DNA from: a virus
Taxonomy: Duplodnaviria; Heunggongvirae; Uroviricota; Caudoviricetes; Crassvirales
DNA: 11,763 nucleotides
Reading direction: 5' to 3' (one strand)
Virus record (IMG/VR): IMGVR_UViG_3300033120_000148
Span: 1 to 11,763 of that record
Every line of letters begins with the position of its first letter. Position 1 is the first letter of the stretch. The translations under genes were made by a program, and so were the position numbers. The notes below the pieces were generated by a model. That model ran no database searches, was not told the origin of the DNA, and saw only the letters and a program-made list of their open reading frames with translations. Of this stretch, positions 1 to 4,596 are shown piece by piece.

Positions 1-357
1 ATTAAAGAGGATGGAACAACAAGAACAGCATATGTAACAACACATACATCTAAGTATAGTGATAGTTCTTATGATGGTTATGAAAACAGAGGTAGTATAT
101 CTCATTCAGAAGGTTGGACTACTAGAATGTTATTGGGTGCGTTTGGAGACCTTATGCCTACAAATGTTGGTGGAAGTTCAAGCACCTTCTGGTGTGACTA
201 TTATTTGCTAAATACCTCTCCAAACCTTTATGGGGCTTTGCTCTGCGGTGGTGCGCTTGACAGTGTGCGTGTCGGTTTCGGTTGCGTGAATGCGAATAGC
301 GTTCCTGCGTATAATTATGCGTTAGGCTCTCGTCTTTGCTTTGTTAAGCAAGCATAA
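1..357 (+). CDS. 5'-truncated tail/adhesin protein; C-terminus resembles DGR target proteins (C-type-lectin-like) of Bacteroidetes phages
   Basis: Frame 1 is open from base 1 to TAA 355-357 (IKEDGTTRTAY...GWTTRMLLGAFGDLMPTNVGGSSSTFWCDYY...ALLCGGALDSVRVGFGCVNANSVPAYNYALGSRLCFVKQA). The GGSSST(F/Y)WCDYY...GG...GF...GSRLCF pattern is one I recognise from DGR target C-termini. The track ORF 127-357 starts at an internal Met. Confidence 0.7.
   Translation: MKEDGTTRTAYVTTHTSKYSDSSYDGYENRGSISHSEGWTTRMLLGAFGDLMPTNVGGSSSTFWCDYYLLNTSPNLYGALLCGGALDSVRVGFGCVNANSVPAYNYALGSRLCFVKQA
241..345 (+). other. Putative DGR variable region (VR)
   Basis: 53 G+C in bases 241-340 against a strongly AT-rich background. 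11 CpG between 246 and 332. GCG/GTG codons alternate with NNY codons and end in GGC TCT CGT CTT TGC at the extreme 3' end of the CDS. No template repeat or RT in the window. Confidence 0.55.
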
Positions 358-405
358 CATAACAGCATGTAGAATTTTTATATAATACAATTAAAAATAA
401 AGATT

Positions 406-777
406 ATGAAATTAACATACAGTAAAGATAAGCCACAAATATGGTCGGCTGTTGGAAATGGAAGTTACTTCTACCATTTCAACATAAATGAAATTGAAAT
501 ACCTGCACAAACAGAAGGTGCAGAAGCTACAAAGGCATGGCAGTATAACGAAGTCATAGTATGGGGTCCAGTTACCTCTGATGAAGTAACAAAAGAAGTC
601 ATGAATGCAATGTGGTCTAAAGACGCAGAACAGAAAATGCTGAATGACTACAATGCTGCACAACTTGGTATCCTTGGAGAGGAATATATTGCTAATTACA
701 AAGATTTCCTAAATTCTCGCAAGACTATTAAGGCACAGATTGACACTGATTTTCTAACATTTAATTATGGCGGATGA
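406..777 (+). CDS. Hypothetical protein (123 aa), possibly a tail-fibre-associated or assembly protein
   Basis: Clean ORF with an A-rich leader, ending in TGA. It lies between two tail-type genes. It has 6 Gln codons, all CAA/CAG, and no TAG. Function is inferred only from position. Confidence 0.75.
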   Translation: MKLTYSKDKPQIWSAVGNGSYFYHFNINEIEIPAQTEGAEATKAWQYNEVIVWGPVTSDEVTKEVMNAMWSKDAEQKMLNDYNAAQLGILGEEYIANYKDFLNSRKTIKAQIDTDFLTFNYGG

Positions 778-851
778 AGCAATCTATTAATGCACCTTAT
801 ACCTCAGATCATGCTTTACAAGAGGTACAAAAAGATATAAAGTTTATTTAA
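774..851 (+). CDS. Possible 25-aa small ORF or gene remnant (MKQSINAPYTSDHALQEVQKDIKFI)
   Basis: ATG 774 overlaps the TGA of the upstream gene (ATGA). It ends at TAA 849-851 and fills the gap to the next gene. Too short to be sure. Confidence 0.25.
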   Translation: MKQSINAPYTSDHALQEVQKDIKFI

Positions 852-872
852 TAACAAATAAAATAATATATA

Positions 873-3761
873 ATGATTGATTTAAGATAGATAATTTATA
901 GTTAGAGTGAACCTGAATCTAATGAAGTAGGATGGTTGCATAAAATAAATGATGTATTAGTATTAAGTTTCTATGACAATGGAGAATGGAAATGTATTTC
1001 TAGTGATATAACTGAAGAATTAATAAATGCTGAAACTACTAATAGAACATAGGCAGATACAGCACTTGATATTAGAATAGGTGCAGAAGCTAATACTAGA
1101 AATTCTGCTGATATTGCTTTATCTAGTGCACTTAACATTGAGTCCTCTTATAGAGCTAATGCAGATGCTTAGTTAAATTCTGATATAGTAGCAGAAAAAA
1201 CTAGAGCAACTACAGTAGAAAATACCATTGGTACTTCAGTAGGTTTAGATCCTGAGACAAAAATATATACTAACACTGGTTAGTATATTGGTAAATTAGT
1301 AGTTAATACTGTTACATCAGATATTAAAGCATTAGATACTTAGGCTAAGAATCTCTTAGCAATTATAAATAATAAAGTAACTGTAGATCCTAATAAATCT
1401 CTTGTAGATAATACAGAAATTGAAAAATTATAGGCTTTACCTACTTGGGATGATACATTAGCAGTTATAAAAAATAATGCTCCTATAGCACATTATAATT
1501 ATAACATAAAGAAAACTTATGACAGTGTTTCTAGTATGAATGCTGATAAAGCAGCTCCTATAGGAACCGATGAATTACCTATTAAAATTGGAGATATTGT
1601 TACAGTTGTTAATTTAACAACTCCTTCTGAAAATGGTATTTATAGTTATCAAGGTTCTACTTCAGACTTTAAATTTCAATCTAGTTTTAATTTTCAAATT
1701 GAACAATCAAGAAGCCAGAATGCTGATACTTCACCTAGTAGCAAGTTATTTAATTATGAACTTGAGAAAATAAGCAATGGAATAGTTGAATGTTACAGCA
1801 ATTATCAAGGTGATTTGTATCTATATTCTTTACTTAATATATCAGATAACCCAATAAAACTACAAATAGTTAATTCAGATAGGACTATTTTATTTACTCT
1901 TAGTGGCTCTAATGTTTTATCAGGAGTAGAACAGTATGAATTATACGCTGGTAATTATGTATTAAACATTATTATTAATTGGGATATTGTAGTCACTACT
2001 ATTCATAATGACAGTAATTTTAATCTGTATAAACTAGAAACAAAATCACTATTATTATCCCCATCTATACTATTTAATAAATCTAAATTATCGGATAGCA
2101 TTATTTTCAATGATTCCGTATTAGAATGTTATACAAATTATCAAAATAATTTATTTGTAGCAAGAATATTTAACAATAATTCAAGAAGATATATAGCAAT
2201 AGTAAACGAAGATAATTCTTTTAATTTTGTTTATGATGATGTATCACAAACATCAATTAAAACTAGTATAGAATATTTGCAGATAAAATCAGGAATATAC
2301 TCTATATACCTTTATATTGATTGGAGCAAAGTTCCTGAAGCTGATAGTTATTCATTAACACATGAAACTTGGATATTGAGGAAGCTTAATTATAAATGTT
2401 ATGATATAGCTTTTTCACCATACATAAAAGAATTTGTTGAAAACAATCATATATATCGTGATTCACTTATTTTTTTGGCTAAAAATACCTATATTTCAAC
2501 AGACGGAAGTTTTATACAAAACCCTGATTATATTACAAATATTTTTAGTGTAAACCCACTTGAAGAAGTATTGGTAAAAAGTGGACTAAGAGGAGCACCA
2601 TCATCAATGGTATATGTCGCATTTTATAGCGAAACTCCATCTATTAATACTTATTTATCATCAAAAAGTATTAGCACTAATACATCAACTACTGCAATCA
2701 TAAAAGAAAAAATAATTGTTCCTTATAATTGTAAGTATATAGCAGTGTGTGGAATTGCTGAATCAGGATGGGCCTCAACGGAAGAGTACATAAATCCTTA
2801 CTTAGGAGTTGAAATCACAACTTATGACTATTCACAAATAGTTAATAATAATTTTAAAAAATTATTACCTAATAAAAAAATAAATTGCATTGGAGATAGC
2901 TTAACTATGGGTGCAGGAACCATGATTAATGGCTATCACGATATACATCCATATTCTGCAAAATTACAAGAATTATTAGGATATGAATACGATGTTAAAA
3001 ATCAAGGAATAGGAGGTGAGAGAACACTAACAATAGCTGCCAGAACAAATTCTATCAATGCTTTATTAGCTTCTGATATAACATTGCCATATAACAAGGC
3101 TTAGGTTACAATATCAATGATTTCTTCTTTTGATTCTTTGGAGACTGTAACACCATTATTACAAGGAGGTACAACACAAGGAATACCAGAAACAACAGAT
3201 ATAGCACCTAACTATAAGGTATATGTTAAAGGAATACCATGCACTTTAGCTTATTATGGTGAAGCATATCATTTAGTTAGGTTGGTAGCATCAACTGATG
3301 TAAATGATAATATTCCATTATCCGCAGGTACTCCTATTATATTTAATAGAATGTTAAATGACAGAGATACATTGTGCGATATATTGTGGTGCGGAACTAA
3401 TGATTCTGATAAATCAATTTTAATTGATAAAATAAAAAGGATATTATCTTATAGTAATAATTCTAGGCAAATAATAATTGGGCTCCACAATCCATCATCA
3501 ACAAATAGAATATTTACAGATGCAATGAGATTGGAATATAGAAAAGAATTTGGAAATAAATTTTTTGATATTGACTTATACACTCGTACATCTGCACTAT
3601 CTGACATGAATTTAACACCTACAACAGAAGATACAGATGCTATAAATAATGGATTATGTCCACCACAAATTTTGAGTGATGGTTTTCATTTTATCAATGA
3701 GTTCTACGATGCTCTCGCATCTGAATTAATTAATAAAATGAAAGAAAACGGTATTATTTAA
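873..3761 (+). CDS. Tail spike / receptor-binding protein with C-terminal SGNH (GDSL) esterase, 962 aa with TAG=Gln
   Basis: One frame from ATG 873 to TAA 3759-3761, interrupted only by TAG at 888, 903, 1050, 1170, 1281, 1341, 1431 and 3102. This joins track ORFs 1536-3104 and 3117-3761. It has an N-terminal coiled-coil repeat stalk. SGNH blocks: GDSL (Ser 2898), NQGIGG (3000), GTND (3393), DGFH (3678-3689). Confidence 0.8.
1029..1244 (+). repeat. Four tandem 18-aa (54-nt) coiled-coil repeats in the tail spike stalk
   Basis: AETTNRTQADTALDIRIG / AEANTRNSADIALSSALN / IESSYRANADAQLNSDIV / AEKTRATTVENTIGTSVG, starting at 1029, 1083, 1137 and 1191. The fourth copy is degenerate. Confidence 0.7.
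1788..2324 (+). repeat. Diverged internal duplication of a ~112-114-aa domain in the tail spike
   Basis: ECYSNYQGDL (1788) vs ECYTNYQNNL (2124). IVNSDRT vs IVNEDNS. GNYVLNIIINW (W 1980) vs GIYSIYLYIDW (W 2322). Offsets are 336-342 nt. Confidence 0.7.
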
Positions 3762-3975
3762 AATATTGATAAATGGATAAATTAATAAAACATGATAAAA
3801 TAATGATAGATTATAAAAATACAAAAAAAAAAAGTAATGGGAATTAATGGCATTAGATTTATATAATTTCTATATTTTAAATAGTATTAATCTAAACAAA
3901 GTTATCATCTATGTATGAAAGTTTTAACAATTAATACATAGGTATTAATACTAATATAATATTAAATTACATAAT

Positions 3976-4596
3976 ATGAAATTAAAACTAATAACATCTT
4001 TATCAATACTATTACTTATAGTTTGTGGACTATTTATAAAGTAGTGTAGTTCTTATAATAAATTACAAGACTAGTATAAAATATCTATAGCTAATAATAA
4101 AGCTTATCAAAGTTAGTTAGATACTGCTACAAATAAAAGTAATGTATTTCAATTTAAAGTTGGTCAATTGAGCTATCTAAATGATAGTATTATATCTAAG
4201 TTGAAGTCTGTATAGCAGGAACTAAAAATAAAAGATAAGAATCTTTAGGAATTACAGTATATAGCATCAAAAGCTTCTAGAGTAGATACTATTACATTTA
4301 ATAAAAGAGATACATTATTTAAAGATAAGTATTTAAATATTGATACTGTAATAGGTGATAAATGGTATAATTTAAAGGTAGGTTTATATTACCCTTCTAC
4401 TATAGTTGTATCTCCAACTTTTAATAGTGAGAGATATGTTATATCATCATACAAAAAGGACTATGTAAATACTCCTTCAAAGTGGTGGTTTAAGAGAATA
4501 TTTCAAAAGAAATAGAAACTTATAGTAGTAGATATTGTTGAAAAGAATCCTTATATAGTAACATAGTAGAAAAGATTTATATAGATAATTAAATGA
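3976..4596 (+). CDS. Putative spanin-like membrane-anchored lysis protein (206 aa, 9 TAG)
   Basis: ATG 3976 to TGA 4594-4596 is open if TAG is read through. N-terminal hydrophobic helix (LITSLSILLLIVCGLFI) is followed by a coiled-coil-like segment. It is the first gene of a cluster with the holin and endolysin. The spanin call is inferred from architecture and position. Confidence 0.6.

Follow-up and report, generated by a model that had tools for sequence, protein, structure and literature searches.

A tail-fiber gene of a crAss-like phage (Crassvirales) changes its use of the genetic code and its dinucleotide composition part-way along its length, and it probably (with a probability of roughly 0.75) joins a native, TAG-rich N-terminal anchor to distal modules from a shared pool, where turnover is faster than amelioration. 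The gene lies at positions 873 to 3761 of the window analyzed here, the first 11,763 nucleotides (nt) of IMG/VR record IMGVR_UViG_3300033120_000148, and this window (11.8 kb) is the start of a contig of 75,763 nt. The gene occupies the slot of the tail fiber in crAss001-type phages, directly 5′ of the lysis cassette.

Compositional split within the fiber gene

With TAG read as glutamine (Gln), the gene has TAG at codons 6, 11, 60, 100, 137, 157, and 187 and then only at codon 744, while its CAA and CAG codons (16 and 3, respectively) all lie at codon 260 or later, with the first CAA at nt 1650. Among codons 1 to 187, all seven Gln codons are TAG and CpG dinucleotides are absent; the remainder of the gene has 1 TAG versus 19 CAA/CAG and 19 CpG (Fisher's test of TAG versus CAA/CAG across the split, p = 9e-6). 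These counts exactly reproduce those of an initial annotation made from the DNA letters, which had proposed that host-range domains were recently recombined from a standard-code donor onto a native virion-attachment domain. In the plus-strand late genes of the whole contig, 207 TAG and 186 CAA/CAG codons give a background TAG fraction of 53% (0.527), against which a distal fraction of 1 in 20 is improbable (P of 1 or fewer among 20 = 7e-6). Similarly, in the other late genes every one of 178 windows of 20 successive Gln codons held at least 4 TAG. Large late genes carry TAG evenly by thirds (14/11/8, 11/9/8, and 25/15/21), and a general 5′ bias is thus absent; a 5′-biased placement of TAG as a habit of this genome was rejected on the even spread and the 0 of 178 comparable windows.

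The CpG signal is likewise uneven, and stronger than the initial annotation could tell, as nearly the whole contig is free of CpG. The gene's 19 CpG lie between 1568 and 3749, and the stretch from 778 to 1567 has none. Positions 1492 to 3761 hold 19 CpG against 1.7 expected from the background (P = 5e-14), and positions 873 to 1491 hold none against 5.4 expected at the distal observed/expected ratio (o/e; P = 0.004). Distal CpG o/e is 0.46, compared to 0.04 in the genome. All 19 distal CpG could be removed synonymously (15 span a codon boundary as NNC|G, 2 are in NCG codons, and 2 are in CGT arginine codons), so their presence reflects missing amelioration rather than protein constraint. The distal part is compositionally discontinuous with its resident genome, as a horizontally acquired segment should be. 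Composition and homology together bear out the earlier proposal that the front of the gene is native and its distal end foreign to this genome.

The switch from TAG to CAA/CAG is bracketed by positions 1434 and 1649; the last front TAG is at 1431-1433, and the first CpG is at 1568. DNA identity to a TAG-recoded relative (contig L001) is 94.9% over gene nt 1 to 471 and is absent past window position 1343, and a junction segment with ~75% nt identity to standard-code carriers (module B) begins at ~1492. Homology breaks and composition therefore agree on the same zone for the seam. The CpG at 1568 is the single one before 1946, from where CpG density climbs, and a likelihood change-point for CpG in this gene falls at nt 1935 (permutation p = 0.027). 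At the distal o/e, the probability of one CpG or fewer in 1492 to 1945 is 0.08. The CpG rise may be located 3′ of the TAG switch, and one boundary and two fit equally well, which qualifies the suggestion that both signals switch in one zone.

The resident genome has strong habits of its own. When TAG is read as sense, the window becomes an orderly series of plus-strand genes. Its products include a Crassvirus major capsid protein (PF23898, 7e-213) together with a pair of ring 3/4 proteins (PF25710), and capsid and ring genes stand in the conserved order of the Crassvirales. Capsid identity is 79.5% to cr85_1 (Steigviridae, Kahnovirus) and 75.6% to crAss001-type Bacteroides phages (Kehishuvirus isolates). 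Individual plus-strand late genes have TAG fractions of 0.08 to 0.83, and minus-strand early genes are essentially without in-frame TAG. Aligned to standard-code homologues, TAG positions match Gln in 23 of 60 cases, glutamate in 12, and lysine in 7; in the capsid, 4 of 5 match Gln. The restriction of TAG to late genes and its alignment with Gln identify the TAG-to-Gln recoding of late genes already known from crAss-like phages. With no terminal repeats and a length ~22 kb below that of related genomes (~98 kb), the contig probably represents an incomplete genome.

Background CpG o/e on the contig is 0.038 (58 CpG in 71 kb, or ~0 to 2 per kb versus ~20 expected), a near-total absence, and GpC is normal. 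The phage is a TAG-to-Gln recoded, CpG-purged, Steigviridae-like crAss phage of gut and wastewater. Standard-code relatives are purged of CpG as well (o/e of 0.01 in PhiCrAssBcn1, 0.09 in cr85_1, and 0.08 in a bajarodcaudo virus); therefore, CpG loss is lineage-wide and is no indicator of genetic code. The initial annotation had taken TAG and CpG as two read-outs of one event, which fails because relatives using the standard code, including the crAss001 type at o/e 0.01, are also purged. TAG and CpG mark different histories. Searches of the literature for CpG depletion in crAss phages yielded no relevant result, which is weak evidence of absence. Outside the fiber gene, the only other CpG islands of the contig are window positions 1 to 777 and a thymidylate synthase gene, thyX (G000:C1:41021-41854; L015:222-1052, minus strand; PF02511, 6e-38), with 6 CpG and an o/e of 0.33. 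The thyX gene may be another recent import.

Modules of the fiber and their relatives

The first 157 amino acids (aa) constitute an anchor shared with few other proteins (Table 1). P0002 (1,131 aa, in L001) is ~93% identical over aa 1 to 157 and unrelated thereafter; P0003 (1,125 aa, in L002) has aa 1 to 53 and 122 to 159 in common and then continues into a beta-helix/pectate-lyase domain. As the initial annotation anticipated, a search with the N-terminal part returned only TAG-recoded relatives with different C termini, namely these two. The anchor is therefore common to three TAG-recoded genes with three unrelated C termini (SGNH, unknown, and beta-helix/pectate lyase), the arrangement that defines a modular tail fiber, with the N terminus kept among relatives. 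Gln6 and Gln11 are encoded by TAG in all three, and a motif in the first ~40 aa also occurs at the N termini of two open reading frames (ORFs) of the bajarodcaudo virus. Wastewater runs X2 and X3 contain a variant with a 195-nt in-frame deletion, and P0003 lacks the equivalent of aa 54 to 121, which together indicate that the length of the fiber stalk is polymorphic. Scans of IMG/VR and JGI metagenomes with back-translated peptides and with a TAG-containing DNA pattern from the conserved start found no further carriers of the anchor; one of the peptide patterns used CAA/CAG for Gln and was unable to match the TAG-encoded Gln6 and Gln11. Among deposited phages, neither megablast of the gene nor tblastn of its N-terminal part gave a match.

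In crAss001, the trimeric fiber gp22 docks residues 1 to 26 into the THA2-THB tail hub, and other fiber proteins attach to gp22 (PMC10172136). From gene position and by analogy to gp22, it is reasonable to suppose that the anchor attaches the fiber to the virion. Similarity to the N termini of crAss001-type fibers was not detected.

Module B follows the anchor and is far more widely distributed. Its DNA is ~75% identical to that of contigs L008, L009, and L011, and many proteins of 750 to 1,440 aa carry it, in every case with an N-terminal domain on one side and a variable tip on the other. Among the carriers are standard-code myovirus-like phages, in which baseplate genes adjoin, and a standard-code crAss-like phage, in which THA/THB genes adjoin. 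In two independent samples (runs X1 and X2), module B is likewise joined to the anchor: relatives there keep 94 to 97% identity over anchor and module B, and similarity is gone after 1654 to 1751, pointing to a second breakpoint where module B ends. As runs X1 to X3 are mostly without read cover past ~1751, this is taken only as a hint of different tips. Module B has one CpG in each of its two crAss-like carriers (here and in L009) and 4 to 5 in myovirus-like carriers. Its CpG content tracks each resident genome, suggesting adaptation to the genomes that carry it and a longer residence than that of the tips. The module B fiber genes of L008 (10001-14332) and L011 (7423-10485), in standard-code myovirus-like genomes, are CpG poor (o/e 0.44 to 0.67) and of lower GC content than their flanks (o/e 1.1), and so look compositionally foreign in the reverse direction. 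Beyond module B, the middle region (aa ~299 to 532) had almost no homologues in an exhaustive search.

The C-terminal tip comprises a beta-sandwich followed by an SGNH domain. In the homologue alignments (A1 and A5), SGNH blocks I (GDS), II (G), III (GxND), and V (DxxH) keep their D, S, G, N, and H residues with little or no variation. Pfam Lipase_GDSL_2 scored 22.8 bits, below its gathering cut-off of 32.9, and matched block I alone. A sequence search against solved structures gave no match; however, a structural model of the tip (aa 533 to 962; predicted local distance difference test [pLDDT] of 80) has the SGNH alpha/beta/alpha fold and matches CE2, Ape1, and other SGNH esterases with a Foldseek probability of 1.00. 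The tip also matches PHROG tail-protein families, and homologues of the distal domains are found in tail proteins of unrelated phages infecting Arthrobacter, Bacillus, Gordonia, and Stenotrophomonas. The tip is best read as a polysaccharide O-acetyl-esterase fiber tip, whose predicted esterase activity probably deacetylates a polysaccharide on the host surface. A receptor-binding role for the passenger is plausible.

The sole distal TAG, at codon 744, lies within this domain and under the standard code would separate the catalytic blocks of the esterase. Homologues have Q at this column (CAG in P0008), W in four cases, M, or A. As the column is variable, and CAG and TGG are each one transition from TAG, the pattern fits an origin after arrival, and this lone TAG most likely arose once the tip was resident. 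The seven upstream TAG codons would, by sound inference, make the whole protein depend on TAG read-through, i.e., they would gate its synthesis. A scan for sigma-70 promoters and terminators over 700 to 4100 gave hits at chance level; Bacteroidota promoters are outside the coverage of that scan.

Table 1. Coordinates of the fiber gene, its segments, and neighboring genes in the window
Position (nt)	Strand	Feature	Basis
873-3761	+	Tail-fiber gene, 962 aa with TAG = Gln, ends in TAA	phrog_28673 tail protein, 1.7e-26; synteny with cr85_1 and PhiCrAssBcn1
873-1343	+	Native N-terminal anchor, aa 1-157; 6 TAG, 0 CAA/CAG, 0 CpG	94.9% nt identity to L001; shared with P0003
1031-1227	+	In-frame 195-nt stalk segment, missing in natural variants	Joint skipping 1031-1227 in wastewater runs X2 and X3
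1344-1491	+	Linker with last front TAG (codon 187, nt 1431-1433); code boundary most likely at 1434-1491	Codon counts and homology limits
1492-1764	+	Junction module B, aa ~207-298; 0 TAG, 5 CAA/CAG, 1 CpG	54-67% aa identity to P0013, P0014, P0016, P0017, P0038, P0039, and P0049
1765-2470	+	Orphan beta-rich middle with internal repeat, aa ~299-532; 0 TAG, 6 CAA/CAG, 5 CpG (o/e 0.47)	
2471-2870	+	Beta-sandwich domain before the esterase, aa ~533-666; 4 CpG	Model m0d55d4793aad, pLDDT 80; homology to P0008, P0024, and P0026
2871-3761	+	Predicted SGNH/GDSL carbohydrate O-acetyl-esterase domain, aa ~667-962; Ser/Gly/Asn/His blocks preserved; 9 CpG	
3102-3104	+	Sole distal TAG, codon 744, between SGNH blocks II and III, variable column	Homologue alignment
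1-357	+	Upstream tail protein, C-terminal end; 12 CpG, o/e 0.81, GC 41%, TAG-free	phrog_5302, 3e-23, profile 432-545 of 548; cr85_1 gp076 C terminus
367-777		Small gene, CpG o/e 0.42	phrog_11557
3976-4596	+	Lysis regulator gene, native downstream flank; TAG at 9 of 16 Gln codons, 0 CpG	

Origin of the distal part and competing explanations

The closest relatives of the distal part, P0007, P0008, and P0009, share 42 to 54% aa identity over aa ~535 to 962. Their contigs have no in-frame TAG and a normal CpG o/e (0.6 to 1.3), as the initial annotation had predicted for the C-terminal part, and a further relative, P0010, is on a standard-code phage with 29% GC and a CpG o/e of 0.43. The best C-terminal matches are thus on standard-code contigs rather than being confined to recoded phages. 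The annotation's claims of recency and of a single donor fare less well, given the modest identity of these relatives and a mosaic passenger with at least two further breakpoints. As no close donor was found, "recent" can mean only a time short relative to that needed for TAG gain and CpG loss.

The same front/rear split was observed in five other related fiber genes, which points to modules being exchanged continually out of a shared pool and away from a single event. In the L001 and L002 fibers, TAG is limited to codons 6 to 259 and 6 to 139, respectively, and CpG to the rear. Codons 260 to 563 of the L001 fiber (912 nt) have neither signal, with TAG at 0 of 7 Gln codons and no CpG (P = 9e-4), and are a third compositional state. 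A CpG step is also present in standard-code crAss-like fiber genes, at codon 545 in cr85_1 (p = 0.003) and at codon 332 in L009 (p = 0.003), and in the bajarodcaudo virus fiber CpG is absent from the first 219 codons. Fiber-gene CpG o/e is ~0.44 to 0.67 in CpG-poor and CpG-normal (o/e 1.1) genomes alike; the CpG change-point was not significant for L008 and L011.

Three observations concern the surroundings of these related genes. In L001, the gene after the P0002 fiber (3459-3902) is TAG-free with 5 CpG in 444 nt, and the imported cassette may there reach past the fiber gene. In L002, the gene 5′ of the P0003 fiber (2-739) has the reverse polarity, with 7 TAG all in codons 149 to 206 and 22 CAA/CAG mostly earlier, so that intragenic TAG patchiness is not confined to fiber tips. 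In bajarodcaudo virus 1 (PQ006092.1; L013:5666-5900), a standard-code relative, the big SGNH fiber gene is annotated as three ORFs; its anchor-like N terminus (37 aa) stops at a T run and the frame resumes in +1, which may reflect a sequencing error or else programmed frameshifting.

We propose that an anchor specific to this lineage and of long residence occupies the first ~190 codons; it shows the genome's own habits, with TAG in at least about half of the Gln codons and without CpG. The remaining parts (module B, the orphan beta domains, and the esterase tip) would derive from a pool of fiber modules circulating among phages that differ in architecture and code. Since TAG-free sequence reads alike in both codes, standard-code modules could enter a recoded genome unchanged. 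Swapping may proceed by homologous recombination, with conserved pieces (the anchor and module B) serving as handles. Distal residence would then have been too brief for TAG gain (1 of 20 Gln codons) or for loss of the synonymously removable CpG. In this scheme, TAG would record time in recoded genomes and CpG time in the CpG-purging clade, including its standard-code members; the direction and relative timing of transfer are inferred.

Several observations weigh against the shared-pool explanation. No close donor was found in deposited phages, IMG/VR, GTDB genomes, or protein collections (best match, 42 to 54% aa identity), and several of the best distal relatives are on contigs of 46 to 50% GC, compared to 28% in this segment. 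Support for the CpG change-point at 1935 is no more than moderate (p = 0.027) and its placement is poor, and for L002 and the bajarodcaudo virus the change-point is not significant. Known anchor carriers number three. ARAGORN found no suppressor tRNA (anticodon CUA), or any tRNA at all, on the 75.8-kb contig, which is incomplete. Finally, some native late genes are also TAG poor (fractions of 0.08 to 0.25), so TAG scarcity alone is weak evidence for short pieces such as module B.

An alternative hypothesis, that of the initial annotation, is that a single recent recombination at ~1435 to 1560 brought the distal 2.2 kb from one standard-code donor outside the crAss-like phages. The last front TAG (1431) is near the first CpG (1568), a single boundary is statistically tenable (P = 0.08), and relatives of the distal part do lie on standard-code contigs. 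However, the distal part has breakpoints of its own, with the X1 and X2 relatives diverging after 1654 to 1751 despite 94 to 97% identity over anchor and module B. Module B is CpG poor here and in L009 but CpG normal in myovirus-like carriers, the CpG change-point lies at 1935, and L001 possesses an intermediate zone free of both TAG and CpG (0 CpG in 912 nt). Combined with the failure to find a close donor, this makes a single event unlikely.

A second alternative, that no transfer took place, is considerably less probable. Here, a few early TAG codons would suffice to gate translation, and the distal CpG would be kept by selection or chance. Upstream TAG codons would indeed gate the entire protein, and TAG counts pooled over the genome are slightly higher in the first fifth of genes than in the other fifths (64 versus 33 to 52 per fifth). 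Yet other large late genes carry TAG to their ends without a comparable TAG-free run, the compositional seam falls at homology breakpoints, and the distal CpG could all be removed synonymously, as CpG has been in the rest of the genome. Moreover, the CpG step appears in standard-code relatives without any TAG.

Least credible of all is an assembly chimera joining two unrelated phage fragments near 1500, a concern for any metagenomic contig and one prompted here by a graph branch with an eight-fold change in depth: a 4,940-nt contig from a second assembler covers 739 to 4000 with zero differences, contigs from independent wastewater studies cross the joint at 1011 to 1654 (22 differences) and 1281 to 1751 (30 differences), and the reading frame is uninterrupted in an architecture repeated in two other assemblies. 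A chimera at the joint, which the initial annotation had named as a possible artifact at ~1500, is excluded by the second assembler and the independent-sample contigs. The branch itself was seen in run X24, which is source-like, at ~739 to 768, where contigs over 600 to 766 have ~8x depth and continue into other sequence.

Relation to known systems and implications

Late-gene recoding of TAG to Gln (code 15) is known in crAss-like phages (PMC7886860; 10.1101/2021.08.26.457843; PMC9523058). As in those reports (Yutin 2021, Borges, and Peters 2022), TAG is here confined to the late, structural arm and aligns with Gln; in contrast, recoding here ends part-way through one gene. A term search of the Borges preprint (10.1101/2021.08.26.457843) turned up no reference to recombination, horizontal transfer, tail fibers, or CpG, again weak evidence of absence. 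Modular fibers and tailspikes are similarly well described, e.g., host-recognition modules common to unrelated families of Alteromonas phages (PMC10579305) and crAss001 gp22, and the present gene resembles them in its conserved N terminus, its unrelated C termini, and its distal modules common to unrelated phages. It differs in that exchange crosses a difference in genetic code and in CpG purging, so that seam and polarity can be read from composition.

In having a tail protein that ends in an SGNH domain whose catalytic blocks are preserved, this phage resembles others with esterase fibers. Escherichia coli phage G7C gp63.1 is another SGNH esterase among receptor-modifying phage proteins. SGNH esterase domains of fibers and spikes are also described in the epsilon15 tailspike (bioRxiv 10.64898/2026.07.31.742079) and in receptor-binding enzymes of temperate Klebsiella phages (PMC13123978). 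The predicted tip has the same combination of beta-sandwich and SGNH domain as the two-domain esterases CE2 (2WAA, 2WAO), Ape1 (4K3U, 8GLD), and Est2A (4DEV), with a Foldseek probability of 1.00 and E values of 1e-5 to 1e-4. Sequence identity to these enzymes is 9 to 14% and the global template modeling (TM) score is 0.26 to 0.31, owing to a differing orientation of the domains, which denotes likeness of fold class and not family membership.

Tail-fiber mosaicism, late-gene TAG recoding, and SGNH fiber tips are thus all known already. What is new is a seam inside one gene, across a difference in genetic code, marked by two independent signals and recurring in relatives. The gain is one of resolution and polarity in a known mosaicism, with no new mechanism. 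It offers a cheap route, using sequence only, to recently swapped host-range parts in abundant gut phages, and the rate at which imported genes adapt to a new code and to a dinucleotide purge becomes testable.

We tentatively speculate, at less than even odds, that TAG gain and CpG loss are independent marks of residence that sort segments into three states, with fiber tips as perpetual immigrants and recoded phages as one-way sinks. If so, native recoded segments would have TAG and lack CpG, segments from standard-code crAss-like kin would lack both, and segments from outside the purged clade would lack TAG and retain CpG. After calibration on closely related pairs, module swaps could be placed in order and roughly dated by the two marks. 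Recoded phages would import any TAG-free tip, and TAG-laden anchors would not be exportable.

The finding suggests that the code switch has not isolated these phages from the host-recognition modules that circulate in common. Standard-code phages apparently still serve as a source of imports because TAG-free genes read identically in both codes, and export of native TAG-bearing parts should fail.

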